Assembly (NCBI GenBank): GCA_010015805.1
Contig: ML978132.1
Span: 124,001 to 188,000 of the forward strand
Length of the DNA: 64,000 nucleotides
Reading direction: 5' to 3'
Origin: Rhizodiscina lignyota
Taxonomy: Eukaryota
Part shown: one piece after another, positions 12,081 to 36,006 of the stretch
How positions within the stretch are numbered: position 1 is the stretch's first letter
Layout: each line of letters opens with the position of its first letter
The notes under the pieces: model-generated
The model's input: the letters and a program-made list of their open reading frames with translations, nothing else
Database searches by the model: none
What the model was told of the DNA's origin: nothing
Translations under genes and position numbers: made by a program

Positions 12081-15000
12081 TTAAGCAGTGTCAGATTCCC
12101 CATCAGTGAGATAGCTAAGGTCAAAGACTTCTCTTTCCTCTTCGGCTTCATCTTCGGACAGGCTTCCAGACTGCCCCGAGATCTCGTCTGGCAGCTGAGG
12201 CGGAAATCTGAAGCCCTGGGAACCTATCAGGGGAAACTTTTGGGGACTTTGATTCGGAGCTTTCATCAAACTGTTGGACTGCTTTTCACTCTTAATGAAG
12301 GCTCTCGTTGCTCTGGGAGGTAAATCGAAAGCACCGTCTGTCATGACGCTCAAGTCTGGCGGGGAGCGCTTCTTTTTCGTCGTTGTGGTAGGTTTTGAGT
12401 TATCACTGCTGTCTCCCGTAAGATCAATACGTTCAGCAATAGTACGAGTATTTGCCTGGTTTGGTACCGGTGATAACGGGGCCCTGGACTTGCCAGGAGA
12501 TTTGCCAGTTGCCGGTGAACGTTCAGCAGCAGGCGAGCCGTCGCGCCTGGAAATTTCCTTCGGGGCCTCGCTAGCGGCCGGCTTGTCGTTATCGGCCGCT
12601 CTTCCTACGTCAGGCGCAGATCTAGGCGGACGAGGGTTGGAAGGGCGCTGCAGAGTTGGCTTAGGAAGCTCCGGCGGAGCAGAAGAACGAATGAGGTTGG
12701 CAGAGTTCGCCTTCGCAATCAGTGAATTTTCTCGAAGCTCACGGGACTCTCTGCGGGATGCGCTCGCAGGTTGGGTAGATGCAGCGCGTATGGCGCTATT
12801 TTGTCTGCGTTCCGCGTTCAGATGAATCGGGGAGTCAAGGCGTCGCTGTTCATCTACATTCGGTGTATTCGTGGTAGTGTGACGTCCTCCCAGGGCGCTA
12901 GGGGAAACGCTCGAAGACGATGGTTTAGCCTTCAAGGGAGAAGGAGAACGAGGGCCAAGGTTGAAGAAGGTCCTCTTTTGAGATGTCGTAATGGTGGGAC
13001 CCGAACTTTTGGTCTCATTGCCACCACTCGCTGGATGTGAATCGTCTGAAGAGCGTTGGCTACCTTTATCATCAGTCGATCGGGAAGCCTTGGGTGGAGA
13101 TTCGGTGCGACGGGTTGGAGGGGCCATCTGGTCCATGCTCTCGATTGGTGAGACATGCGAAATGGGAACATTAGCCGACGTAGATGTTGGAGGATTCATC
13201 GGCGCGACTGGTGCAACATAGTCGGTTCGATCCAATTGCGTGCTGAAACCTGGTTCGGGCACCAAGCTTTGGTTGGAAAGGGTACTCTTTGCAGGATTGG
13301 CCATTTCGGCGATGGAAACCGATGTCGATGGGGTGTCGGCTTTGCCCATGTTCATAATAACATTCTTCACCCATTCTACTGCCTTCTCTGTGTTCCACCG
13401 CGCTTGCTTGAGAGCATCTGCAATGAGATTAGGTTTAGCATCTGGAACTGCCTTGGTGACTATGTCGATTCTGTGCTGCTGTTCGGCGTGTGGAATTTGG
13501 GTTCCCATCGGGCCTAGTCTGGCTCCAGGATGGGTGAAAGCAGTGGGAGTAGAAGCCGTTGCGGCTGTGGGATTCCGCCCTAATCCAGCCTGTTGGTAAA
13601 CAGCCTGCTGATAGCGTCCTGGGTCTTCCTTGCGCATCTTCTCCAACTTGAATTCGTCCTCAACTTCCCTCTCCTCTTCAGCGGTCAATTCTTCATCCGC
13701 AAACTCTGCTTGCAATGTCTCGGTTGTTGTGATTGCTTTGATAGGATACTTTTCGCCCATCGTTTTCCGAGCTTCAAGCACGTGGTCCAGAACAACCTTA
13801 TCCTTGCCGATGTGCTCATCCAGGTCCTCAGCTGGCACGTCTCGAGGCTCAAACAAGAAGTCTGACGTCTTGAGTGCTTGACTGCTTATCTTCTTCTTTT
13901 CGACGACTCTGAAGGCAAGCTGTGTTTTGAATACTGACATGTTGTACAAAGCCTCTTCAAATGTCCCACCGGTGACGAATCGGTATACGAAGACGGGTTT
14001 CTCTTGACCCAAGCGATACGCTCGGCCGACAGCTTGCTCTTCATGGGTTGGGTTGAAGCCAAAGTCGAGAAGAACCACGCGGTTAGCCCCAGGAATGTTG
14101 ATGCCGACGCCGCCCGCGGTAGTAGAGATCAGTAAGACGTCATACTCTCCTTCATTCAAGGCTTTTGCTAGACCTTGTCGTTTCTGCGGCGACACTGACC
14201 CATCCATTCTCGCCGCCTTGATTTTGCGCAGTCTCATGAGTTCCTCGAGATAATCCAAAGTCGGAATACTGTGCGAAAAGACGAGGACTCGATCTTTGAC
14301 TTCCAATTTCAAAGAACGCGTGATGACCTGCATTGCAAAGATAGCTTTCGCTGTATGCGTGGTATCCATGATGTTGGTGTGGGCCGTTGCTAAAATTGCC
14401 TGAAGCTCTTTTACAAGGTCGGCAGGGATGAGTTCTTTGATTGGCTTATCGTCAAGAGCTTTGGTAAAAGCTTCATCAACATTGTCCTGGCCTTGATCAT
14501 CCTTCTTCTGGGAATTAGTTGTCTTTGTCTTCTTAGGTTTTGGCTTCTTTTTGGAATTCGTGGCCAGCGGAGCATTGAGCTTTATCTGAAGCGCTCTTGG
14601 ATGGTTACAGGCAAGCTGCAATAATGCCATCCACTTGAACAAATTGGCAGTAGATACTTCGCCATTCGCAAGGGCGGCGCGGATAATGGCGGAGCATAGG
14701 TCCTTTTGAATGCCGGTAAGTCCAACTTTCAGAACGAATTCCAGTTTTGGCTTGAGGTTGCCTCTCAGGACCTCAATGTTTGCGCGGTTGACTTTTGGTG
14801 CAATTTCGCGATTGAGGACGTGCAATCTCTTCAACGCCTTCCGATGTTGAGACTTGCTGCTGCTCTTGTATAGGCCTTGTTCGATCGGGTCCTTGTAATA
14901 GTTTCTGAATTCCGTCGCATCTCCTAAGAAGCCCGGAGCGACCCATTCAATCATTGCAAAATACTCCAGTAAGTTGTTCGCAAGAGGTGAGCCTGTCAGC

Positions 15001-18000
15001 GCAATTCGGGACGTCGACTTGAACCGCGCAGCTACCCTTCCAAGTAGTGAGCTAATTGATTTCAAGCTGTGAGCTTCGTCGGCGATGATCAAAGTCGGAC
15101 TCTCTAGCAAAATCTTTGCCAGTTCTTTTCGCTCTTCCTCGACCAACTTGCCCCCCTTTCTCTTGACATGGTCACCGTCATTGACAAGGTCACGGAACAT
15201 CTGGTACCCAATGAGCAACACCCCACCTTTTTTATCCCATTCGCGTCCATTGTCAAGTCGATCTGAAGGTGAGGTTATAGAGGTGTCTATCCAGAAAACT
15301 TTGCCAACATCTTTCATAAGGCTTCCGGGGAGCCACTTGATAAACTCTTCCCTCCAATTGTTAATGAGCATTGGAGGACACAGGATGAGGGTTCTCAATC
15401 CACGCAGAGTAGGCGAGAGCTGCTCAGATACCTCAGGATCTTTCGCAGCTACAGAGAGCGTATGGATAAACGCAATTGTCTGCATAGTCTTTCCAAGCCC
15501 CATAGTATGCGCAAGCAGACAACCCTCACCGCCAGTGACAACCTCACGCCACATGAAGCGAACGCCTTCGAGTTGATGCGGTTGCATGTTTGAAGAGATG
15601 GCAACATCGATGTAAATGAATTGGTTTTCGTCCACCTCGTCCACATTGACAACTTCTCCTGCAGAATCCTCGTCGCGTGTTGATTGGCTGTGCATATCCA
15701 AGAACCGCTGGGTATGCTTCTGGGACTCAAGTTGTCGGAACTGAGCCTTTTTGCGCCTCTCCATTGCCTCAGTATTCTGTTTCACTTCCTTCTTTCGACT
15801 TGAACTGAGTTGCTCGAGGACATCCTCATCAGATAATTCATCAGATGAATCGGAAGGCTCCTCCTCCTCTTGATCATCATCGACTGTGTCTGGCGATGTG
15901 ATCGGTTCCTGGTGCTGCTCAAAGAAACCTTTCAAAATTGCTCGGAACTGCGCAATAGCTTCCTTGAGACGAGGTCTGCTGAGTAAATCGTTCTGGGTTC
16001 CTGTCAGGTCCTCCTTGAATTTCGTGTGATCGCATTCTTCGAAAATGACCAACAGGCGAGCAAACTCAAACATAAGTGAGGAAGTGTTGATGTCTACACC
16101 TTTGAGCTTCTTCTCGCCCTGGTGCAGGGCCTTAAGCGCACGATACACTTCGTCATTGAAGTCAACGGCCTGGATGCTGGAAAACCGGGCTCTTAAAAGC
16201 TCGAATAGTTCCAAGCGGAGGGTGAGGAGGACCTTGAAGACGACCTGCTTGCGCATGTTTTGTTCTTCGAGGTATTCCCAATCGTGCTTCACGATCTCTT
16301 CAGCGCTCAGTTGTTTGGTAGGGTGTTGGCTCGAGCCGGATGCAACAGTTTGCGATGGTGGGGCAGGCGTGTTAGATTTAGCAGGCGAGTCCGTATCGGA
16401 ATCTTCACCACAGAGATCAATGACTTCCGGACCATTACCGGTATTCGCCATTTGAGTCATGCTAGGCTCTTGCTTCGTTATCTTTGGATGGTCGACGTCC
16501 ATTCCTAAGCCTGTGTCGGCTGGATTCGGTTCAGCGCCACCATTATCGCTCTCCACTGAGTAGAAACTCAGAGGTGAGGTCCGCAGAGGTTGTTCCTCAT
16601 CTGCGCCAGCAACAGTGTTGTTCCGACCAAGCTCGTCTGGAGTGCGCTTTCTCGGAGGGAAAGCCTCATCGTCCTCTTCAATGAATCCTTCTAGAGCAAC
16701 CCCCACAATGTCTGAGTCGCTATCCAGAGACATGCCGTCTTCATCATCCACAGTAGCAAGTTTCTCCTTTTTCTTCTTGAGCAAAGTAGTCGGTGGCTTC
16801 TCTGGTGCTTGTCGCCTCTTCAAAACGTCCATTTTGAAAAGCTCCTTTTCTCGGTCGACGATCGTTGGCTCCATGCTCCGGCAGGCTTTGATGAGTTCTT
16901 GTTCTTTCCACTCAGAATGAAGGAAGTGCTCTTTCTGTTTGGCGAGCCTATGCGTCAGATTTTTCACGTTCTTCTGTGCAAATGCGATTCGGTCCGCGCG
17001 AGATAAGTTTATCGCATTCTGCTTCCATATACTCCAGGCTTTGTTCTCCTGAAGTGGAAGCTTCTCCGCCTTCCACGTGTCAATATAACCTTGAACAGTC
17101 TCATCGATAACCTCGGCCGCCCTCTTATCAGTGAGAGGGCCATTATTCCTCGCACCCTCTAGCTCTGCCTTCTCCTCCTCAATCTCACGTTCAATGTCCG
17201 AGTCGAAACCACTTTCGTTGTCGGAATCGCCAGCCGCAGGGAGAACATCAGGGTCATCGCTTGCATGTCTTTTGCCATTCCATTTTTCGATAAGATAGTT
17301 GTACTGATCGCCGGAGGAATCGGTTTCCGCGTCCCCGAGAAGGCCATATCCAGCCTCGATGAATTGCGGATCTTCTCTGGTGACGGCTTCTGTTTGAGGA
17401 TCGAAAAGAAGGCCCGAACGATGGCTGCTCTTCTTACTTGCGCCAGCCCGATAAGGATACACCACAACTGCCTTCTGCCCATTTCGATCTACCTCCTCAC
17501 GCTCTGCATTATGCAAGAAATGTTGCATTTGCCTGTTTACGAATTGTTGCTGGCCAATCAGGTGTTGTTGAGGAGCGTGAAGGGCAATGGAGAAGTCGAG
17601 CTGTTGTGGATCATCAACCTTCGCGTCGGTGGTAAGAGACGAGTCGTAAAGAACAACTTCTTCGCCCAACTTGGCATCGCCGAAGAAGAGCTGTTCTACG
17701 GCCATCTTCTTCAAACCAAGGAAGTAATTGGAAGCATCTTCAAGTAGAGATGCCGATTTGGGTGAAGCAATATTGACAATACCACCATTGTTCAACTTGC
17801 GCCGCTTCCTTCCAGACTTGTCTTCCACGAGTGCTTCTCCTGGTCGCGTGTGCGTGCCCACAGGTCCCAGCGCCAAAGCATTCTCTTCCACGTGTGCTGA
17901 TTGGGTCGCTTGATTTGTAGAGGGCAGGGCCAGGTGTGGTGCGGCTTGATCAGTCTTGAACGTTCCTTCAACCACCATTGCGGGTTTGATAATTGAGTGT

Positions 18001-18434
18001 GTCACCTCCGGTATAGCACTCTGAGGGCGAGACAGACGGCCGGACACGCTGTCATGTTCGAAATGAACTCCTGGGACGGTACGGACACTCGGGGTCACGC
18101 TGAAGATTGATTGCTGTCGTTCGACATCACTCTTCTCCTCCGAGAAGTGTTTCTGCGAGATTCTTTGGAGATCTTTGATCGCATTGTGAATGGAAGCTCT
18201 TTGGCCAATGGACCGAATTTTTGCCTCGTTCTGGAGAACATCCTTGTCGATGGATGTTAGCAGCGTGCTGCCATTGACATCATTATCCCGGAGGAATGCT
18301 TCGAACGCGACGGGGTCCGGCAATGCAGAGTGCGGTTTGTCTTTCCAAAGATCTCTGGACTTGCAGAAGTTTTGAACAACATCATCAACACTCCAGTTCC
18401 AGGGATCTCCGGCAGGATCTGCGGCCTGATCCAT
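12081..18434 (-). CDS. SNF2-family chromatin-remodelling ATPase, ATRX/RAD54L2-like subfamily, with an N-terminal SAM-like domain
   Basis: Motifs HQLEGVRFMW, GCLLAHTMGLGKTMQ, IIADEAH, ALTGSPLANNLLEY, LLISTTAGGVGIN and EEQAVGRAYRLGQ. LAHxMGLGKT is typical of the ATRX/ARIP4 group. First ATG is at 18434 (about 2117 aa). Confidence 0.88.
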   Translation of the reverse strand: MDQAADPAGDPWNWSVDDVVQNFCKSRDLWKDKPHSALPDPVAFEAFLRDNDVNGSTLLTSIDKDVLQNEAKIRSIGQRASIHNAIKDLQRISQKHFSEEKSDVERQQSIFSVTPSVRTVPGVHFEHDSVSGRLSRPQSAIPEVTHSIIKPAMVVEGTFKTDQAAPHLALPSTNQATQSAHVEENALALGPVGTHTRPGEALVEDKSGRKRRKLNNGGIVNIASPKSASLLEDASNYFLGLKKMAVEQLFFGDAKLGEEVVLYDSSLTTDAKVDDPQQLDFSIALHAPQQHLIGQQQFVNRQMQHFLHNAEREEVDRNGQKAVVVYPYRAGASKKSSHRSGLLFDPQTEAVTREDPQFIEAGYGLLGDAETDSSGDQYNYLIEKWNGKRHASDDPDVLPAAGDSDNESGFDSDIEREIEEEKAELEGARNNGPLTDKRAAEVIDETVQGYIDTWKAEKLPLQENKAWSIWKQNAINLSRADRIAFAQKNVKNLTHRLAKQKEHFLHSEWKEQELIKACRSMEPTIVDREKELFKMDVLKRRQAPEKPPTTLLKKKKEKLATVDDEDGMSLDSDSDIVGVALEGFIEEDDEAFPPRKRTPDELGRNNTVAGADEEQPLRTSPLSFYSVESDNGGAEPNPADTGLGMDVDHPKITKQEPSMTQMANTGNGPEVIDLCGEDSDTDSPAKSNTPAPPSQTVASGSSQHPTKQLSAEEIVKHDWEYLEEQNMRKQVVFKVLLTLRLELFELLRARFSSIQAVDFNDEVYRALKALHQGEKKLKGVDINTSSLMFEFARLLVIFEECDHTKFKEDLTGTQNDLLSRPRLKEAIAQFRAILKGFFEQHQEPITSPDTVDDDQEEEEPSDSSDELSDEDVLEQLSSSRKKEVKQNTEAMERRKKAQFRQLESQKHTQRFLDMHSQSTRDEDSAGEVVNVDEVDENQFIYIDVAISSNMQPHQLEGVRFMWREVVTGGEGCLLAHTMGLGKTMQTIAFIHTLSVAAKDPEVSEQLSPTLRGLRTLILCPPMLINNWREEFIKWLPGSLMKDVGKVFWIDTSITSPSDRLDNGREWDKKGGVLLIGYQMFRDLVNDGDHVKRKGGKLVEEERKELAKILLESPTLIIADEAHSLKSISSLLGRVAARFKSTSRIALTGSPLANNLLEYFAMIEWVAPGFLGDATEFRNYYKDPIEQGLYKSSSKSQHRKALKRLHVLNREIAPKVNRANIEVLRGNLKPKLEFVLKVGLTGIQKDLCSAIIRAALANGEVSTANLFKWMALLQLACNHPRALQIKLNAPLATNSKKKPKPKKTKTTNSQKKDDQGQDNVDEAFTKALDDKPIKELIPADLVKELQAILATAHTNIMDTTHTAKAIFAMQVITRSLKLEVKDRVLVFSHSIPTLDYLEELMRLRKIKAARMDGSVSPQKRQGLAKALNEGEYDVLLISTTAGGVGINIPGANRVVLLDFGFNPTHEEQAVGRAYRLGQEKPVFVYRFVTGGTFEEALYNMSVFKTQLAFRVVEKKKISSQALKTSDFLFEPRDVPAEDLDEHIGKDKVVLDHVLEARKTMGEKYPIKAITTTETLQAEFADEELTAEEEREVEDEFKLEKMRKEDPGRYQQAVYQQAGLGRNPTAATASTPTAFTHPGARLGPMGTQIPHAEQQHRIDIVTKAVPDAKPNLIADALKQARWNTEKAVEWVKNVIMNMGKADTPSTSVSIAEMANPAKSTLSNQSLVPEPGFSTQLDRTDYVAPVAPMNPPTSTSANVPISHVSPIESMDQMAPPTRRTESPPKASRSTDDKGSQRSSDDSHPASGGNETKSSGPTITTSQKRTFFNLGPRSPSPLKAKPSSSSVSPSALGGRHTTTNTPNVDEQRRLDSPIHLNAERRQNSAIRAASTQPASASRRESRELRENSLIAKANSANLIRSSAPPELPKPTLQRPSNPRPPRSAPDVGRAADNDKPAASEAPKEISRRDGSPAAERSPATGKSPGKSRAPLSPVPNQANTRTIAERIDLTGDSSDNSKPTTTTKKKRSPPDLSVMTDGAFDLPPRATRAFIKSEKQSNSLMKAPNQSPQKFPLIGSQGFRFPPQLPDEISGQSGSLSEDEAEEEREVFDLSYLTDGESDTA

Positions 18435-19233
18435 GCCGGGCGGCTTTCCCACTCGCGTGAATGCAGTGACTAGGAATCGAAGAATCTCCTGTAAGAGAAA
18501 TTGTTCTGGGGAATCTCAAGAAACCAGGCAATGTAAGTCGTGTTGCAAGTCGCCTAAGCGAAAACGAGGTCGAAATCGACTTGTGGGAAGCTTCACAAGC
18601 TCTGGCGCAAGGTAGAGAAACGCGCGCGCGAGTGACTGCGAAAGCTCCTCTCCGAAGAAGATGTAGTACAAAAACGCCTGGCAAACCCGTAAAGTGCGGT
18701 GAGATAGTTTCAGAGGGATATGAAGGAGATAATTACTGTAAATCACGCGTTTCTGAAACTAGCGTGGTGGTCGATTGGAGAGATGGATGGACGTGTCAAA
18801 GTGAGGATAGAGACCAAAATACCCAGATAGGTAAAGAAAATTTTGGCCGGAGCAAGAGAAATACCGGAGCACGATCACCAGACCGTGTTGGTGGTAGTGA
18901 AGAAGGCATACCTCAAACACTCATAGTTGCTGCCCCATCTCCCATCTCGTGGGGAAGGCACGATGGATCATGGCACAGCTCAGCCGCAGCCGCGCGCTAC
19001 GATAGGATATCTGATACGATAGCCAGGCTTGGCATAGTCTCTCCGCGCCCTTCTTCGTTACATGAGGATTATGTCAGCCTCTATATCAGATTGCCTGACT
19101 AATTCCTGACTATTAAATCGGGCTTCCAATACCTCATGAAATTCTCATACTGCGTCCTCATTTCCCATTCTCAATCTCACGTCGAGATTGATCTGAATTT
19201 CATTCTGTCTCCTTGGACTTATCGATTGTCGTG

Positions 19234-25968: not shown

Positions 25969-27699
25969 ACCTGCAGCCTCTTAGTTTGATTTGATTTTTT
26001 TTCAGTTCTCTGCTCCTGCTGTCTGTCGTTCCGGCATAGGTTCCAAGAGCCTTCACAGCGCGCTCTTCTTCATTCATTTCTTCAGCGATGTGCTTTATAC
26101 CCCTTGGAATTTGGAACTTTCATCAGCCTTGCTCTAGCAGGCTGGATTTGCGGCATCTGTCATATGCGTTTGTTGCTTCATGTTTACTTTGGAATTGCAC
26201 GTCTACCGACGAACCATAGCAAGGGAATGAGATTACGGGATACACAAAAACGCATTGGAGCTCGGAGGTCACGGACACGGTCTTCACCATATACTACTCA
26301 TAATCTAATCTATTCACAATCCGCCAATTTCTAGTCAGCATCGCTTCGACTTTCAGTTGTACGTACGAGGATAATTGAGAACTGTTCGGATGATGTTGAT
26401 GCCAGCCCCCAGATCTTAGCCCTACCATTCCCCTTCCATCTGCAGCATAGCACAGCAACTGCAACCTTGAAGTGGCCGCTGATTTGCTTTGTCATTCCGC
26501 TGTGGGTCGTATTCGATTCATTGATGTTGCGACATGGGAGGTCAGCAGAAAGCAGAATGACGACAGCCTGCTTGCTTTTCCGCCATTTCGCAAACCTTAA
26601 AGCGACTTGCAACATCAAATGGCTGAGCAGACGCGTGTTGCCTCGCTTGCATACATCACTGAGCTTGCAATGATCTGAAATGGTGCCTGAGGCGTCCATT
26701 CGAACAGTCCTCGGCTGATAGGGGGTGCGTTGGGCAGGAATGTTGCGCTGGTTCCTCCGCAACAGCCTCATGCGCTACGCGGGCTGCATGCACGACGATA
26801 ATCTTCCGACGATTGACGTCTTTGAGCTTCACTTTATGTGATCGGTCGTCCACTTGCATGCCCTCGCGCCGCTGGGATTCGCTGCATCACTTCTCGGAGG
26901 GACCGGTTCAGATTTATAGGCTTGGTGTGATATTTCATAAGCTTTCTCCCGCCGCTACAGCAGAAGCGAAATTGCCGCACGCTTCGTTTGCCTTCGTCTC
27001 TCGTTTTCGGGCGCGACGTGCGAAAGCTTCGCGACCAAGGGCTCGCAGAGAATTATTCAGCTGAGAGGATGTGGAATTGGGAGATGACGTCCTTAAGATC
27101 TACCGGTATGCTCAATCGAATCTGGACGCCGCCCGAAGGTACGGTTCTTATGCTGGCGTTAATCACCGAATCCAGCACTGGACCGTGTGGTTGTCTCCAC
27201 CGCGTGCAATTTCGAATTCCTGAACGGCTTTTAGCTCGCCCATCGAGCAGAGCTAAGAGGCTAAGCCGCGCAAAGTCGCGCGATAATGCGTTCAGAAGGT
27301 AAGGCTAGCAGCTGGCAGACTTCCGAATGCCCTTCTAGTGCCCTTCCTCCTGTTTCTTCTGCTGAAGCATCACGATCGGCCCTGTCAGCCCAATGCTGAT
27401 TTTCCGCCACCAAAGACGAATGGACACTAGCACAGCTGGCACAGGGCAGGGCGTACCCCTGGAAGCATATGGCACTGTCTTTCGGGAATGAGGTGAACGT
27501 TTTCGAGGATCACACTTGGCTCAATGCGTTGCATGTTTTTACGGCTGTCTCTAGGGATGAGATGAAGGAAAGATAGATATAATCGCACATCCGCCTTCTT
27601 CTCCTGTGAGCATTTTTTTGGCCTGATCGCTGCACCTACTAGCCGCTCCTTCATCCCACGTCGTTGGCGTCGAGTCGAATTTTGCCGTTGGCACAGGGC

Positions 27700-29266
27700 A
27701 TGGAGCCCATCATAAGCGAGCAGAACCTGCACGTTTCATCAGCACCACGGCGTCCTCTACCGACAACCAACCTTCCACCCAGACCACGGACCCGGCTCAA
27801 GTCGAGACAACTGCTTTGCCAACAGCCCCATCTTCCGTACAACGCTGGAGTCACTTCTTCAATATCGGCCGAGGTCCCTGGCCGAACAACGCGACTCCCA
27901 GACGACCGCGAAGTCCGACCAGACCTAACGTACGGGTCGAGCACCCACAACTCCGCGAAGGAACGCCCAGGAGGACAGAGGGACGAGACGAATACCCGCT
28001 CCTGACGCTCCCTGAGCAGCGTCAAAGTCGGCAGAGCATCTCCGGCAGCCTTGTCGTCGAGCACTCGGCGGGAGGAGGCAGTAGTCGCACCTCAATTGGC
28101 CTGCCCCCAGGCCGCCGAAGCTTCGCGGCAGAACGAGAAGGTGCACAGCAGCAACAACCCACGTCTCCGACATTCACAACAGCGCCGACCACTTCGCGCC
28201 CGCCGCCGTTGACGGAAAAGGGACGAGGGAAACAGCGAGCACCTGAGCCTCCAGAAGACGCTCTCCAGCCACCAGAAGCCGAGTCAAGCTACGAAGCTGC
28301 AGGCACTCCATTTCCCGCACAGCGCAACATGCCACCACCCGGCGGGGCACAGTTCGACAATGCGCCCTCACAGCCTCTCGACCTCGAAGCTCAAAACATC
28401 TCCCGTCTCAAGCGCTCCGGCTCGCGCGCCTCTCTACCGCTATCCGTACAGCCCTCCACACCACACTCTGACGCCGGCACGCGCGACGGACCAGAACCTG
28501 CGTTGCAACCGCCGCCTGGAGGCGAGGAGGAGGACTACCAATGGGGCCCTTCGCACCCTTGTTTCCCTCATCTGAATCCACACGTCCCGCTCGACTCTCC
28601 ACTCTACGAGTCTACGAAGATAATACGCGTGAAAAGAGACTGGATGGTAGCAGGCGATCTGGCACCAACATTTGCGAACCTATATCCCGAGGTGCTGGAT
28701 CCGCTCGTCTCAGAAGAATCGTTCCGCACAATCATCAGGAAGATAAATTCGGAGCTGGTTGCTGCGTTTTCGCCCTTTACCATGAGAGCGTGGATCGATG
28801 CGCTGCTGGGTCTAGCGACGTTCTGGCTATGGGACGACGCAGGCCTGACGGGCGTGAAGAGCAGGTTGAAGCATCTGGAGACGTGGATAGAGCAGTGGAA
28901 TAGAGGGGAAGGAAGCAAAGAGGGCGTGCAGATCATACCATTAAGAAGGACAGGGTACATGACTGTAAGAGCCTCCATTTCTGTTTCAGTCTTCATTCAT
29001 ACGCGCAATCGCATCTGCTTCGAATTTTGTTCGTGCAGTGGCTGACTTCGATATAGCTCGACTTCCAAATTCCAGACCCACATATCGGCCTCGACAACGG
29101 TACCAACGCCGGCTCCACATCGCGCCTCCCCACTAGTACAGATGTGAATAACCCACCTGGACTCGATTCTGCACGCCATGGCGAGCTCGGCCCATATCAG
29201 ATTGTTCAAGACCTCGCCACGCTTAGAGCAGGCGGGATGCAAACTCTGGCGGGGACGGCGCGATGA
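27700..29266 (+). CDS. Erf4/Golgin-A7 family palmitoyltransferase accessory subunit with disordered N-terminus; start exon tentative
   Basis: C-terminal domain HPCFPHLNPHVP...IIRVKRDWMVAGDLAPTFANLYPEVLD...IIPLRRTGYMT|LDFQIPDP, with an intron near 28964-29056. A possible first exon 27700-27732 splices in frame to 27783. Confidence 0.72.
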
Positions 29267-29811
29267 AAAATAATAATATGCATAGTAGGATAATCGGTAA
29301 TTCACGAAGAGACGCCCGGCGGACTGGACTTCCTTTTGTTATTTGGAGCGTTGAGCGTGGCGCGCATTATGGGTCGGGGCATGGCATTAGTGGGCGTTGA
29401 TAGGGGCAGATGCCAGTTCTTGGTGCACAATGATGGATCGCGAGGATGGCAGCGTATCAAGGACGTTCTTCCTGGTTCTTCTGACCTCTTGTGCTCTTCT
29501 TCGATTTGCTTAGACTCTGTTTTGCTGGCATTGATACCCTTTTTCATTTCGTCTCCGCAGCAATTCGCTGGTTTATTTTCAACGTTAAACAGCTTCAATG
29601 TGACAACCAATCAACGTACCACCAAAACTGCACCAGCGTCGCCGTTGAAAAATCTTTCCAATTCAGTGAAATCACTCAGAGGTCTCTGTGAGGATCAAAC
29701 CCTCCATCTGCTTCCCTTTCTCTTTTCTTCATCTTGCATCTCAAACTTTGAAGAAGTACAACATCAGAGCTCATCTCAGAGCATCACCATCACATCTCAA
29801 ACATCATCAAC

Positions 29812-30438
29812 ATGTACAGACTCCACAAACCCTCTTCCTTCTACCCTTTCTCCTCCAAGCCCGAGGAGTCAACCTGGACGCTGCGCTACAAAACAGAACC
29901 TCCGCTCTTCTTCTCGCCGCCAATTGTCGAGGAGAACACACGCGCAGACGCCATCTTCGGCCGCCGGGACAAGGTCCCGCCCGAGCTGTTCGCGTGGTAC
30001 CTGTCCTGTACCAGACTGTACGCGCAAGACCCGTTCTGGTGTCCCGGGGCCATCGCCCGCTGGGCAGAAGACGTGAGGCCGGCCCCGCACGAGGAGCTGA
30101 TGGCTGTGATGATGGAGCGAGAGGCGCAGCGGCTGCGCGGGGAGTGGGCAAGGGCGGAGGAGGAGAGAAGGGTCGCTGCGGCTGCACGGGCGAGAAGGCG
30201 GAAGGGGCGTCAGAGGGAAAGGCGGGAGTGGTCGGCGGGGAGGCGGCGGGAGCATGCGAGGGAGGAGGAGGCGCTTGCGCGGGGGCGAAGGGTGCAGGAG
30301 AGGGAAGAGGAGGAGCGTCTGCGGAGAGAGCGAACGCTTGCATGGGCACCGGCCGTGCGCGAGGAAGAGTGGGTGTTGGTGCAGAGCAAAGGTAGGCGGA
30401 GAAGGGGGGTTAGGCACAGAGCGTGTTGTAGTAGTTAG
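29812..30438 (+). CDS. Orphan hypothetical protein (208 aa) with an Arg/Glu-rich helical C-terminus
   Basis: ATG in a CAACATG context after a CA-rich leader typical of fungal 5' UTRs. No family recognised. Confidence 0.4.
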   Translation: MYRLHKPSSFYPFSSKPEESTWTLRYKTEPPLFFSPPIVEENTRADAIFGRRDKVPPELFAWYLSCTRLYAQDPFWCPGAIARWAEDVRPAPHEELMAVMMEREAQRLRGEWARAEEERRVAAAARARRRKGRQRERREWSAGRRREHAREEEALARGRRVQEREEEERLRRERTLAWAPAVREEEWVLVQSKGRRRRGVRHRACCSS

Positions 30439-30974
30439 GGCATCAATTGGCATAGAGTTTCGTTCGTCCTGTGTTCACTTCCGCTGTAGTCGCACCGACA
30501 GCTCGAGCCAGGTGCAATATCACATTTACTCCGCTCGACTTAGGTCACGTTGCTTGTGCTCCACGGTATTCAAGTAAACTTTGAATATGCGCCAACGAAT
30601 TGTGAACATATATGTGAAATAGTAGACTAACCATCGTCAAGTACTTCGTTCCATTGACGCCGGTGTCAATGTGATGTGGCCAATGTCGCAGTGCCTTGTT
30701 GAATCTCGAACGCATAGACGTGCCAATATTTCTTCCTCAGGCGCCAGCACAAGGCTGACAACGAAATGAAAAAATATTGGCACCAACTGCATAAAGCCTG
30801 CACAGTAGTCAGCATCGTCTGCCAAATCGGACTGCTTTGATGCGTCGGAGTGTCACAACTCACCAAAGTTGGTGCAAAAGCTCTCCGTGCAACCTCCCTT
30901 TACATTCTTCCTCATTTATCCGCCCTCAGTCATCGGTCGCTCGAAGGGTATTCATAAACCGTAAACGCATCACA

Positions 30975-31335
30975 ATAACAAAAGAAAGAGGAAGCAAGAA
31001 TAGAAAAGGGAAAGCGGAAGAGAAGACCCAAAAACAGGTGAAGGCGAGGAGGGAGCATGTGTGGAAGAGGATACATAGGTGAATAGGGGTGCGGAGAGAG
31101 GATACAGGCGGCAGAGGATATAGCAGAAGGAATCGGAAGAGAGGCGGAAGAGAAGCGGTATAGGTGAGGAGGTGAGCGGAAGAGAGGCAGGAGAGAGGGT
31201 CTACATAGGTGTATCGGAGGCGGTGAACGCGCGAGTAGGAGGAGTGCAGAGGAAGAAAGAATGACGGAGGTGAAGGTGCATAGGTAATTGCAGCGAAAGG
31301 AGAGGAAAGGGATAGGAAGTGAAATATAAGAGATA
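30975..31335. repeat. Purine (GA)-rich low-complexity tract with strong strand asymmetry
   Basis: Seen directly (runs such as ggaagagaggcggaagagaagc). No credible ORF. Confidence 0.7.
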
Positions 31336-31393
31336 CTTAGCTGCTATCCTCCGCTTCTACCTCTTCAGGCGGCACCCTAAGTCCAAAAAGGAT

Positions 31394-31752
31394 CTGCGAG
31401 CACGTTAGCGAACCAAGGGGAGTGGGAGTGACTTACCTTGAAGAACCTATGAACACGTTAGCAAATCAAAGGGGGTAGGGCTCACTTACCTGGCAGAGAG
31501 ATGTACCTGTGCACAGTTAGCATACCAAAGCAGGAGGGGGACGACTTACCTGGAGAACACCTGTGCACAGTTAGCATACCAATCAGGGAGGGAATGACTT
31601 ACCTGGAAGAAGAAAGATATGCCTGTACACAGTTAGTGAACACAAGGGGAGAGGATCACCTACCTGAAAGAACCAGATGTATCTGCGCACACGTTAGCCA
31701 GCATGGGGGGAGGGGCCTACCTGTAAAGAAACCAATCTGCTGACAAGTCAGC
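31394..31752 (-). other. Tandem array of six mini-introns (38-43 nt) separated by micro-exons (10-20 nt), plus an upstream branch/acceptor
   Basis: On the minus strand each unit reads GTAAGT/GTAGGY - pyrimidine tract - RCTAAC - 9-10 nt ending YAG. Introns: 31683-31720, 31623-31663, 31561-31602, 31507-31549, 31447-31489, 31394-31436. Confidence 0.8.
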
Positions 31753-32654
31753 ATGATATCCCAAGAGTTCCAGAACAAATTGAAGTGCGAGGCGGGGAGT
31801 GTGTGCTGCGGTGGAGAGCCTGAGCCAGAGCAAGTTTGAACTGGTGCCGAACCATAGGTAAACTCTTGGCGGAAGACTCTGCATTGCCTGGGGCACTGGT
31901 GGGAGAGGAGTATGCCTGCCCCGGGAGAAGCATCTGCAACATGTTGCGCATCGATGAGGACAGAGGAGATTCTACTTAGCGAGAAGCGTCGGCAAGATGA
32001 GGCGTCCTGGCGGAGGAGGTAAAAAAACAGCCATGCGTTGCCGTTCAGCCACCTTTGGAGGATTAGAGTCGGAGGGCCGGTGAAGTGTTGTGACCACATC
32101 CTTCCGAAGGCCGTGCAATGATGCGATAGCGTTGATTGGCAATAAGGTCAATGGTCGTCGAGCGCTGACGCCACATTGACGGATGGATGATGGAGTTTGA
32201 CATGATCTCTCTCCATCAATCGAGCATCGGTGACGGAGATGAGGGCAGGAGATCACGATGAATGTATGGATGGGATTGTGAGACATTGATGGAGTGTTGA
32301 TTGCTATGAATGGAGGCTCTATCTGTGTTTGTAGAGAGGTGCAAAGGAAGCTCGCCAGCAAAGAAGGAAGAAGATCCTTGGATGAGAGATGCATGATGTG
32401 AGAGAGAGATAGACAGAATACGAGAACGCTCTGCAACAGAAATGAAAGGCCGGATGGAAGAGCAACGCCAAGGTGGAATTCGGTCTTCAGTTGCAATGGC
32501 CATAGTGGCATAGCGACAGTGGCACCGTAAGGAAAGGCCCTCGGAAACTTCCTGGACCACCAGCAGAGATTGGATGATCCCGGAAGGAGGAAGCCATCGA
32601 GTGATGCGAGAGGAAAGTGAAAAGTAGAGGAAAGAGAATGCGAAAGTGACATAC

Positions 32655-33160
32655 CATCCTTTCCTAGTGCCCTTGGTGAAGAACACCGATTGGCACGAAT
32701 CCCACCGCGTGTACCAGGCGTCGTCAGATTCGTTCGGTCGCGGAAGTTCGAGGTGCCCGCGGACATGCATGAGGGCCCTATAGAAGTCACAGTTCTCTGG
32801 AGCCTCCCAGAGGGGGTTGCATCGGGGGAGGGACTTACCGCCGTTCCATTCCGGTAACCAGGTGTAAGGAATGACCCGTACACCTTTCACCACCTCTTTT
32901 GCCGGCCAGTGGACCTTGGGCTTTGGATTGCTCCGCGGCACCAGAGGGTCCAGTCCCATCAGTCGGCGTTCCTCACAAGTGTGGAACTCGGCCTCCATGA
33001 TTGGAGACCGCCTCGCAGAATGACTCCCCGAAGCTGCCTTCGGATCAATGCCAGACTTTGAGGGGCCGGGCTGGGGCGGCGACGAAGGGTTGTGCAATGA
33101 GCGGGCAGCGCTCGCCTTCGTCGCACGCATATAATGTGGGATCTGATTCTGTTTTGCCAT
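32655..33160 (-). CDS. Orphan hypothetical protein, probable first exon (3' structure unresolved)
   Basis: ATG 33160 begins MAKQNQIPHYMRATKASAARS and the frame stays protein-like to GTRKG. It is followed by a GTATGT donor at 32654 and pyrimidine-rich sequence. Confidence 0.4.
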
Positions 33161-35052
33161 TGCGTTAGCAAATGGCTCTTGCAAAGTTTGTGTGTTTGGG
33201 TTTGGATTGCTTGTGAAACTTGTGAAACTTGGGGGGCACTTAGCTTGTTCAAGTTTTCTATGGTGAGGAGAAAAGAAAGAGGAAGGAAAGAAAGAGGAAG
33301 GAAAGAAGAGGAGGGCCTTAAATAGTTTTCGAAGCGGGCAGTTCAGCGCTAGGCTGCAAAGCGAAAGGCGGCCAGAATCTAGTTCATTTACGGTATAGTG
33401 AGTTGCATGTGATGAAAGGATGATAAGAAACACCCAGAAGAGAGTAAGAGAGGTTTGCTGTACAATAACATGAATATATATACATAAGACCCATCGGGGA
33501 GGTAGGCAAGGGGCTTACAAGTGACAGCAAGTCTCAGAATGCGTAACTAAGTGAAGAGTGGAGAGATATCGCTCTTGCTGCGTAAACGAGCTGCCAAGTC
33601 AGGTGATGGTGCACGTAAGGAGCGCTGGCATGCCAGGTACCGAAAAGGCTGGCTTGGCGCTGGCGAGGGCACTGTAGCATGGTGCCCTAGAGGATGCTTG
33701 AAGGCAAGAGGCCTTGTAGAAGGCGCGCGGCAGCCTTTGGGCGGGAGAAAGGGCCTGTATGTTATCATGCTAGAGAAACTGAAATGAATGAGACTACTTT
33801 TATGCCCGGGACTGATGTGGTGGCTGAGATATCGATGAAGAGGTCCCGTCCTGGCTGCTAGAAGCAGTGAGATTGCTCACGAACCACTAGGCAGCGCAGC
33901 GGCACCACGGCTCTGAGGGTATGTATGAGAGCTTCAAAGGGATAGAGACACGCAGAAAAATAGATTTAAGGAGTAATTTATGTGCAAGAGACGGCAGTTG
34001 TGAGGACTCCTGAAAATGGTACAGAAGGAGCCAGCTTGAGCACTTGGGACTCCACAACGCAAGCGTGCGTGCATAAAATATCAGGCATAGAGATACCGAT
34101 AGGAGTACTGGAAGCAGCAAACAAGCCAAACAGATGGAAATCCATTGTACGCGGCGACCGGAGTCGGAAATCGTATCTGCTGCTACCGGCAAGGGCTCTC
34201 GGCATGCCAAAGCAATCGCCCCCAGTGCCCGGCAGCCAACAAGGGGAGCGAAAGCATAACGCGCACAATAACAACCCAACTACAGAGCAAGGCGTTTGGC
34301 AATGAAACGGAAATCAATATAACGGGACATCTAACAATAATAGCGAACATTGCAAGTATAGCATATTGCAAAACAAGGAGCTCTTACGCAAAGCAGGTTC
34401 AGAAAGGTCGTACCTGCTATATCAATGATGGTAGACTGGAACATGGCCCTACAATGGAAACTTGACATCTCTCAATCATTGCGGCATCAAAAGGTGAGGT
34501 TCAAAGCTTCTAGTCCTTAGAACATGTCTGACGAGTGAGGCAGACACTCTCAGAGACACGCTTAAAGACGTATATGCAAGGAAATTGCTGTAAAAGAGTC
34601 AATCGTTGGTGATGACGACTTCATGAACGGGTGACATTTTGTTAACGAGCTGGCAGAACGGAAGGCAACGTTTCATCGATAGCGGCCATCAACTGACGTA
34701 AAGCTGTGGAAGATACGATGTGGACGATTGAACAGGCTTAAGGTGCAGAGACCACACTTGTTTGGACGTGTCGAGGGCAAAGAAACAAGCGGCATAGCGA
34801 GGTGTACTTGATTTCGAAGGCTTGACGTTGAATCAAGGACACGAAAACGGTCGAGGGCCCGCAGTAAACACGTGAGCGGCTTGGTGTTCTTATTTCCGCC
34901 AGTGCGGGCGGCAGCGGTCGACACAACGTTCGACGCCACCTCAACTTCCACTGCACTCTCATCTACATCTCTACATCACCCACCATTGAAACAATTGGCC
35001 TCCTGCCATCCTCACGCTCTCCACCGTCCCACATCAGTCAATAACCGCCACC

Positions 35053-36006
35053 ATGCCGCGGGCTGAAGCGGGCTCCACCAAATCTGTCGCGAACAAGCTC
35101 AAAGCCGCCGGGCTCGGCCGTCTACGCTGGTATTGCCAGGCATGCGAGAAGCAGATGCGCGATGAAAATGGTTTCAAATGCCACGTCGCATCTGAGACTC
35201 ACGTGCGGAAGATGCAGGTGATCGGCGAGGACCCGCGCAAGGCGATCAACGAGTTCTCACAGCAGTTCCTGAGCGACTTTATGAGGCTGCTGAGGACGGC
35301 GCACGGCGAGAAGAAGGTCCATCTCAACCACTTTTACCAGGAGTACATCAATGACAAACATCACATACACATGAATGCGACGAAGTGGAACAGCTTGACG
35401 GACTTTGGCAAGCACTTGGGCAGAGAGGGACTTTGTAGGGTGTATGACGAGGGTGAGAAAGGGCTTCACGTTAGTTGGATCGATAACAGTCCCGATGCTT
35501 TGCGACGGCAGGAAGCAATCAGGAAGAAGGAGCGTCAGGATCGGGGTGATGAGGAGAGGGAGCAGAAGTTGATCCAAGACCAGATCGAGCGGGCGAACAA
35601 GGCAAAGGCTGAGCAGGCAAAGGCTAACAACGCAGCTGCATCAGCGGACGAGGAGGAGCAGCAGAAGAGCGGATGGGAAGAGGGGAAGAAGATCTCTCTG
35701 AACTTCACCTTCAAGAAACCACCTACTCCTCCCGCCGATGAAAAGGATAAGGATAAGGACGCAAGCTCTGGCAGTGACAAAGAGAAGGAGAACGGCGAAA
35801 TCAACTCAAATTTAGCTAAAGGCACTAGCAAACCCGCTGCGCCTTTCAGCTTCTCGAAGAAGGCGGAAGCACCGATCAAACCCAAGAACGTCTTCGGATC
35901 GGCGAAGCGAAAAGATCCACCAGTCGAGCTACAGCGAAAAGCGCCGATGAGCAACATGCAGAGGATTATGTTGGAGGAGCAAGCGAAGAGGCGCAAGGTT
36001 TTCTAG
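35053..36006 (+). CDS. RTS2: KIN17/Rts2 zinc-finger DNA/RNA-binding protein
   Basis: KAAGLGRLRWYCQACEKQMRDENGFKCHVASETH zinc finger and YQEYINDKHHIHMNATKWNSLT. Confidence 0.93.
   Translation: MPRAEAGSTKSVANKLKAAGLGRLRWYCQACEKQMRDENGFKCHVASETHVRKMQVIGEDPRKAINEFSQQFLSDFMRLLRTAHGEKKVHLNHFYQEYINDKHHIHMNATKWNSLTDFGKHLGREGLCRVYDEGEKGLHVSWIDNSPDALRRQEAIRKKERQDRGDEEREQKLIQDQIERANKAKAEQAKANNAAASADEEEQQKSGWEEGKKISLNFTFKKPPTPPADEKDKDKDASSGSDKEKENGEINSNLAKGTSKPAAPFSFSKKAEAPIKPKNVFGSAKRKDPPVELQRKAPMSNMQRIMLEEQAKRRKVF

Follow-up and report, generated by a model that had tools for sequence, protein, structure and literature searches.

The analysed window is a 64-kb stretch of the genome of the Dothideomycete Rhizodiscina lignyota, in which a minus-strand gene contains a tandem array of intron-like units separated by micro-exons. 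When the minus-strand frame starting with the ATG at 33160 was used as a query, a single protein match was obtained, at 99% identity, to the 263-aa hypothetical protein NA57DRAFT_59797 (P0001) of the same species. The deposited model consists of exon 1 (33160-32839), a 61-nt intron (32838-32778), exon 2 of 123 nt (32777-32655), a 721-nt intron (32654-31934) with the donor GTATGT and no canonical CTRAC close to its acceptor, exon 3 of 213 nt (31933-31721), the array itself, and a last exon whose coding part spans 31393-31337 and ends with the stop codon TAA at 31339-31337, all on the minus strand. The deposited protein fits the window only if exactly the six introns of the array are removed. 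The 721-nt intron of the model is very long for a filamentous ascomycete, and it overlaps two long stop-free frames, 32216-33514 and 31972-32886, which have no coding signal. The gene is flanked on the plus strand by an Erf4/golgin A7 family gene (27627-29045) and by a homologue of KIN17 containing zinc-finger and winged-helix domains (34990-36006), both of which can serve as synteny anchors. A 228-codon open frame with an Arg/Glu-rich second half and no Pfam family (29752-30438, plus strand) converges on the gene, and a 2144-codon open frame with clear coding codon usage occupies positions 12084-18515 of the minus strand.

The array covers positions 31720-31394 of the minus strand, where six intron-like units of 38, 41, 42, 43, 43, and 43 nt are arranged head to tail and enclose micro-exons of 19, 20, 11, 17, and 10 nt. 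Mini-intron 1 (31720-31683) begins with GTAGGC, continues to a GCTAAC branch site with its branch A at position 27, ends with CAG, and is followed by the 19-nt micro-exon at 31682-31664. Mini-intron 2 (31663-31623; GTAGGT, ACTAAC, CAG) precedes the 20-nt micro-exon at 31622-31603, and mini-intron 3 (31602-31561; GTAAGT, GCTAAC, CAG) precedes the 11-nt micro-exon at 31560-31550. Mini-intron 4 (31549-31507), which is identical to mini-intron 3 at 37 of 43 positions and appears to be the youngest duplicate, is followed by the 17-nt micro-exon at 31506-31490. Mini-intron 5 (31489-31447) ends with TAG and has a second donor-like sequence, GTGAGC, 4 nt inside; it is separated by the 10-nt micro-exon at 31446-31437 from mini-intron 6 (31436-31394).

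The splice signals of these units are uniform. The donors read CAG/GTAAGT in three units, AAG/GTAAGT in one, and CAG/GTAGGC and CAG/GTAGGT in one each, with GTAAGT or GTAGGY in all six. The branch site is GCTAAC in five units and ACTAAC in one, and the 3' end is CAG in five and TAG in one. In every unit the YAG ends 9-10 nt past CTAAC, and the distance from the branch A to the 3' end is 10-11 nt. The AG/GT configuration is present at all six donors and at three of the six acceptors. The branch-site motif is given as CTRAY in the available part of PMC5677156, and each of the six units has the sequence signals of a U2-type intron of filamentous ascomycetes, namely a donor GT with RNGY-like bases, CTRAY near the 3' end, and YAG. 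A sequence-only reading of this stretch had described a series of six such units on the minus strand, and its sizes, donors, branch sites, and YAG spacing are all borne out. It had also listed a separate first exon of 16 nt; the sequence is there, but it constitutes the last 16 nt of the 213-nt exon 3 (31933-31721), with no upstream donor seen.

The array introns are at or below the lower end of the lengths described for other fungi. Among manually checked introns of four Fusarium species (226 core genes), the shortest has 42 nt and the longest 529 nt, and the median is 57 nt (PMC5677156, available sections), and the intron length distribution of Neurospora peaks at 60-69 bp (PMC4317165, as far as its accessible text goes). 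Four of the six array introns (42, 43, 43, and 43 nt) lie at the bottom of the Fusarium range and two (38 and 41 nt) fall below it, this range being taken from other species. The mini-introns had been proposed to be shorter than those in the rest of the window; this agrees with a rough, unverified scan in which the other well-formed candidates begin at 47-50 nt, but lengths of 42-43 nt are within the Fusarium range. An exon of 10-11 nt would leave little room for splicing complexes to sit simultaneously on both adjoining introns, a point against the splicing of every copy.

We then asked how often such short introns are expected by chance. A strict regular expression for very short introns, run on both strands of the 64 kb, returned seven matches, all on the minus strand, which correspond to the six array introns and one alternative donor within the fifth; outside the array the window contains no match on either strand. 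The same expression gave a mean of 2.3 matches per window in 200 block shuffles, with a maximum of 9. Since about 2.3 matches per window arise by chance, a single match is not rare, and the non-random part of the observation is the head-to-tail clustering together with the likeness of the units. A looser intron scan did not discriminate, with 17 candidates of at most 50 nt observed and 17.3 in shuffled sequences.

The host gene is a species-specific orphan. When its 314-aa read-through frame was compared by phmmer with 1.84 billion representative proteins, the sole match was NA57DRAFT_59797 itself, over residues 1-111, and a word-indexed protein search likewise confirmed one match among 12 candidates, again NA57DRAFT_59797. 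No Pfam family was assigned to NA57DRAFT_59797, to a 93-aa frame on the plus strand, or to the downstream minus-strand frame. The Atlas structural model of NA57DRAFT_59797 has a pLDDT of 0.30 and a pTM of 0.14, and all its structural neighbours in the Atlas are below TM 0.4. We scored codon usage as a log-likelihood ratio per codon, with 17 long open frames from the window as the training set; these frames reach 0.09-0.30 when scored on themselves rather than held out. Exon 1 scores 0.14 in frame versus -0.34 and -0.08 out of frame, exons 2 and 3 together score -0.016, and the micro-exons with the last exon (45 codons) score 0.058. A coding-like signal is present in exon 1 only, where it is weak, and the array part has no detectable coding constraint.

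The joined exons of the series (93 nt) contain no stop codon in any of the three frames, as had been claimed, whereas each frame of the unspliced array is interrupted by stops. The lengths of the micro-exons differ by insertions and deletions, so that their phases are mixed, which argues against a repeated coding function; on balance, the coding status of the array leans against constrained coding. The opposite strand offers another coding interpretation, according to which the array is a repeat within the 93-codon frame at 31462-31743 (plus strand) that encodes a repeated peptide. This frame is open over most of the array, and a short peptide recurs in two of the units. Against it stand the lack of any Pfam family up to an E value of 1 and the complete splice signals present in every unit, which appear on the plus strand as their reverse complement; moreover, most of the unit periods, at 53-62 nt, cannot be divided by three, and a peptide repeat is therefore not kept from unit to unit. 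We consider this interpretation hardly credible. A host of snoRNAs or other known RNAs is not indicated either, as Rfam gave no match up to an E value of 1 across 29000-36000, and the array introns are too short to accommodate a snoRNA.

Comparison of the units with each other points to a common origin. The pairwise identity among the six aligned introns ranges from 47 to 86%, and the spacers of most pairs are 47-74% identical. Tandem Repeats Finder reports a period of 53 with 88% matches at 31505-31607, which, along with the 37 of 43 identical positions in mini-introns 3 and 4, bears out the close likeness that had been noticed between two adjacent units. To see whether the remaining units are also related, the splice signals were stripped and the residual sequences were compared with 1000 composition-preserving shuffles. 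The donor-to-branch spacers resemble each other with z = 8.4, a value reached by none of the 1000 shuffles, and the branch-to-acceptor spacers with z = 8.6, again with no shuffle as alike. The micro-exons are mutually alike as well (z = 8.5, 0 of 1000 composition-preserving shuffles). When intron 4, a member of the near-identical pair, was left out, the likeness persisted with z = 6.6 and 6.4. Judged from their sequences, all six units are true paralogues, beyond the one similar pair, and since the micro-exons are alike as well as the spacers, the duplicated unit comprises a micro-exon and an intron. The earlier suggestion that introns were multiplied here by tandem copying of an intron-plus-exon unit is supported in this form, with the paralogy extending to all six units in both spacers and micro-exons. 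The array would accordingly have grown in several rounds of tandem duplication of differing ages. A search for decayed extra units in both flanks of the array found none (all p > 0.2), and the repeats in 30400-34900 comprise nothing beyond the families of the array itself and purine-rich low-complexity matches.

The positions that are kept among the copies are those of the splice signals. The alignment of the six introns has 44 columns, 14 of which are invariant; these include all 11 signal columns, defined as GTA, G at +5, CTAAC, and AG, and 3 of the 33 others (hypergeometric P = 4.7e-8). None of the 66 signal cells (11 columns in six copies) has changed. Overall, the donor, the branch site, the acceptor, and a TG after the branch site are kept across copies. 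The proposition that splice signals were retained while the spacers diverged holds up as an inference from these counts, the contrast being partly circular, because the units were recognised by the very signals that are scored and a decayed copy would go uncounted.

The case for splicing of the units as annotated draws in part on the deposited model. The genome annotation was produced with the JGI pipeline, as stated in the accessible part of PMC7082219. In our judgement, the model of NA57DRAFT_59797 is much likelier to derive from transcript assembly than from ab initio prediction, since exons of 10 and 11 nt, a 721-nt intron with weak signals, and the lack of homology support together make an ab initio origin improbable. 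Taken with the conservation of the signals, the model suggests that the array is spliced in the cell. Of the public sequencing runs that contain this DNA, none is on record as RNA; one covers the entire stretch with a single near-identical contig and may be the source of the DNA, and a second contributes only one contig, of 194 nt, from upstream of the start codon, with no joints reported, so that these runs speak neither for nor against expression. The units might instead represent a minisatellite in an untranslated or non-transcribed region overlaid by an artefactual gene model, or the array might be removed as one larger intron. Such readings draw on the units of 38 and 41 nt, which lie under the lower limit published for Fusarium (PMC5677156, in the sections available), on the appearance of the predicted protein, which looks meaningless past exon 1, and on the chance occurrence of lone matches to the strict expression. 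They would have to explain how spacers came to be only 47-74% identical in most pairs with not one of 66 signal cells changed, which is hard to do unless the signals are used, and how exons of 10 nt entered the model, as in our judgement ab initio predictors do not build them without transcript support. We regard it as unlikely, though worth keeping in view, that the units are not spliced as annotated.

The interpretation that we consider rather probable is serial tandem duplication of a unit made of a micro-exon and a mini-intron, whose copies are still spliced, within an orphan gene. The starting unit would have been about 53-62 bp long, with a micro-exon first and a very short U2-type spliceosomal intron after it, and would have been located in what is now the 3' part of the species-specific gene NA57DRAFT_59797. 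It was probably duplicated by unequal crossing-over or replication slippage, and every copy would have kept AG/GTARGY, RCTAAC 10-11 nt from the 3' end, and YAG. With the full set of signals in each copy, we propose that each would be recognised by intron definition and removed, so that splicing would shorten the 327-nt array by about 250 nt and leave 77 nt of micro-exons in the RNA. The micro-exons would have drifted in length by insertions and deletions; the transcript is presumably young, and the array most likely occupies a tail of it that is not conserved or a portion that does not code for protein. The property maintained would then be the capacity for being spliced out, because a copy left in place introduces stop codons or puts the transcript out of frame. 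In the annotated frame, a stop falls inside intron 2, 3, 4, or 5 when that intron alone is retained, and intron 1 or 6, when it is the only one left in, causes a frameshift. The sequence shows the anatomy of the array, the paralogy of its units, the invariance of the signals, and the match to the deposited model; splicing in the cell, the mechanism of duplication, and selection on the signals are what we infer.

Intron multiplication could also have been driven by an introner-like element, that is, by repeated insertion here of introns from a mobile or multiplying family. Introner-like elements were described in the Dothideomycetes (PMC4457414, available text), the class of the host, and there is one sign that the intron type of the array is not strictly confined to it: in the 61-nt intron that lies 1.1 kb upstream within NA57DRAFT_59797, the first 21 nt, a count that includes the G in front, match unit 1 at 18 of 21 positions, a score that none of 300 shuffles reaches. 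This 61-nt intron (32838-32778, minus strand) has a C-rich 5' module as in unit 1 and no canonical CTAAC, and the array introns may descend from it or be related to it. A unit profile run with nhmmer, however, found no further copy on either strand of the 64 kb, the best match outside the array being this same intron at E = 3.7. The micro-exons were duplicated along with the introns, which a mobile intron would not bring about. Stable predicted secondary structure is a described trait of introner-like elements; the array RNA has no unusual stability, with z = -0.8 and 21 of 100 shuffles folding at least as well. A scan of metagenome collections, which are a poor sample of fungi, gave no match to the pattern of units 3 and 4. 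The pattern of two introns with a micro-exon between them occurred at three metagenome loci, none of which has a complete intron by regular expression on either strand; we read these as chance matches. An origin through a mobile intron family is accordingly rated as distinctly improbable.

The array could be a selected regulatory cassette, acting as a timer through its rate of splicing, as a retention-coupled switch for nonsense-mediated decay (NMD), as a spliceosome sink, or as a source of up to 32 micro-exon isoforms; a combinatorial cassette, a sink, an NMD switch, and a lncRNA were the possibilities put forward in the sequence-only reading. The invariance of the splice signals in all six copies would be expected of such a cassette, retained introns 2-5 create stops upstream of the remaining junctions, and the geometry of the array should force an ordered splicing. 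The cost of unspliced copies accounts for the same signal retention just as well, and nothing points to a function of the orphan host gene. Micro-exon skipping, furthermore, terminates in the last exon, where all three frames stop within 57 nt, in each of the 32 patterns in the annotated frame, with no premature stop upstream of a junction; because the stops always fall in the last exon, skipping alone makes no NMD switch of the kind that is based on junctions downstream of a stop. We find little reason to expect a regulatory cassette here. A bolder variant views the array as a locally self-amplifying "tandem introner" under selection for splicing as such, in which introns at or under the size limit of the lineage, and exons that are too short to accommodate two splicing complexes together, lead to slow, ordered removal that serves a young transcript as a kinetic timer or a retention-coupled decay switch, or else generates many isoforms. 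We judge this variant quite doubtful; if true, it would mean that introns of 38 nt on either side of exons of 10 nt can be spliced in a filamentous ascomycete.

Among known systems, the array is most readily placed as a multi-copy variant of an established route of intron gain, with the nearest analogues being single gains by tandem duplication in fungi and plants and the exon/intron arrays of Tetrahymena. Intron gain by tandem duplication in fungi is represented by one case in Neurospora (PMC4317165, accessible portion), and such duplication accounts for less than 1% of intron gains in Zymoseptoria tritici, as cited in the available text of PMC4457414. Cases under the AGGT model of tandem genomic duplication are a Neurospora tetrasperma gene (PMC4317165, same portion) and an RdRp gene of potato (PMC4974935, to the extent of its accessible text); this kind of gain shares with our array the paralogy of the new introns to neighbouring sequence within one gene, the adjacency of the copies, the AG/GT boundaries, and the dispensability of a mobile element. 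In the cases described under the AGGT model, one duplication gives rise to one intron, whereas here a whole unit of an intron and a 10-20-nt exon is present in six copies, and both introns and micro-exons have been added, so that the mature RNA is changed. The introner-like elements of Dothideomycetes resemble the array in fungal class, in full canonical signals, and in mutual resemblance of the copies (PMC4457414, available text); unlike them, the array copies are local and in tandem, include an exon in the unit, have no stable fold, and occupy no second locus in the 64 kb.

More distant parallels are found outside the fungi. The coding exon/intron arrays of Tetrahymena (PMC6564038) are also composed of intragenic tandem exon-plus-intron units and are explained by unequal crossing-over, but their exons are exactly 90 bp long, uniform in phase, and coding, with introns of about 230-260 bp that are longer than the exons, whereas the exons of our array measure 10-20 nt, vary in length and phase, and have no coding signal. 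The 37-bp minisatellite in intron 7 of human F7 similarly has a splice signal within its repeat unit (PMC1557585, as its available part describes it); there the donor alone is repeated and one donor is chosen, and here each unit has a donor, a branch site, and an acceptor. Runs of very small exons also characterize another group of genes. The micro-exon genes of Schistosoma have symmetric exons in multiples of three, flanked by ordinary introns, and encode secreted proteins. The array exons of 19, 20, 11, 17, and 10 nt have no coding signal and are not multiples of three, which separates them from the Schistosoma type. In the open-access literature searched, we found no description of a tandem mini-intron/micro-exon array in a fungus.

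To our knowledge, proven new spliceosomal introns are few, and the cases that involve tandem duplication are mostly single events. A graded series of six copies with 47-86% identity in one gene offers replicates in which the positions that a minimal fungal intron retains can be told from those that are free to vary. If the junctions are confirmed, the array would set a natural lower bound for a filamentous ascomycete of 38 nt for an intron and 10 nt for an exon, and it would provide a compact substrate for studies of intron definition and splicing order. It would also illustrate that the expansion of a minisatellite within a transcript need cost little, since every copy removes itself by splicing. 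Should the junctions not be borne out, the locus would be a cautionary example for gene annotation.

Several features of the surrounding sequence were recorded in addition. On the plus strand of 30001-36000, the GC skew amounts to +0.23 to +0.24 between 30 and 34 kb and to +0.07 between 34 and 36 kb, and the AT skew is +0.11 to +0.27 throughout 30-36 kb; the minus strand, which is that of the orphan transcript, is hence pyrimidine-rich for several kilobases, including regions outside the gene model. Downstream of the stop codon, in the presumed 3' UTR, an 11-nt tandem repeat, CGGAAGAGAGG (plus strand), is present in six copies with 67% matches at 31134-31198. Upstream of the start codon, at a distance of about 110-150 nt on the minus strand, positions 33272-33312 form a pyrimidine-rich repeat with a 15-nt period, as is typical of fungal promoter or leader regions, and a 194-nt contig of one public sequencing run, identical to 33197-33390, coincides with this repeat.
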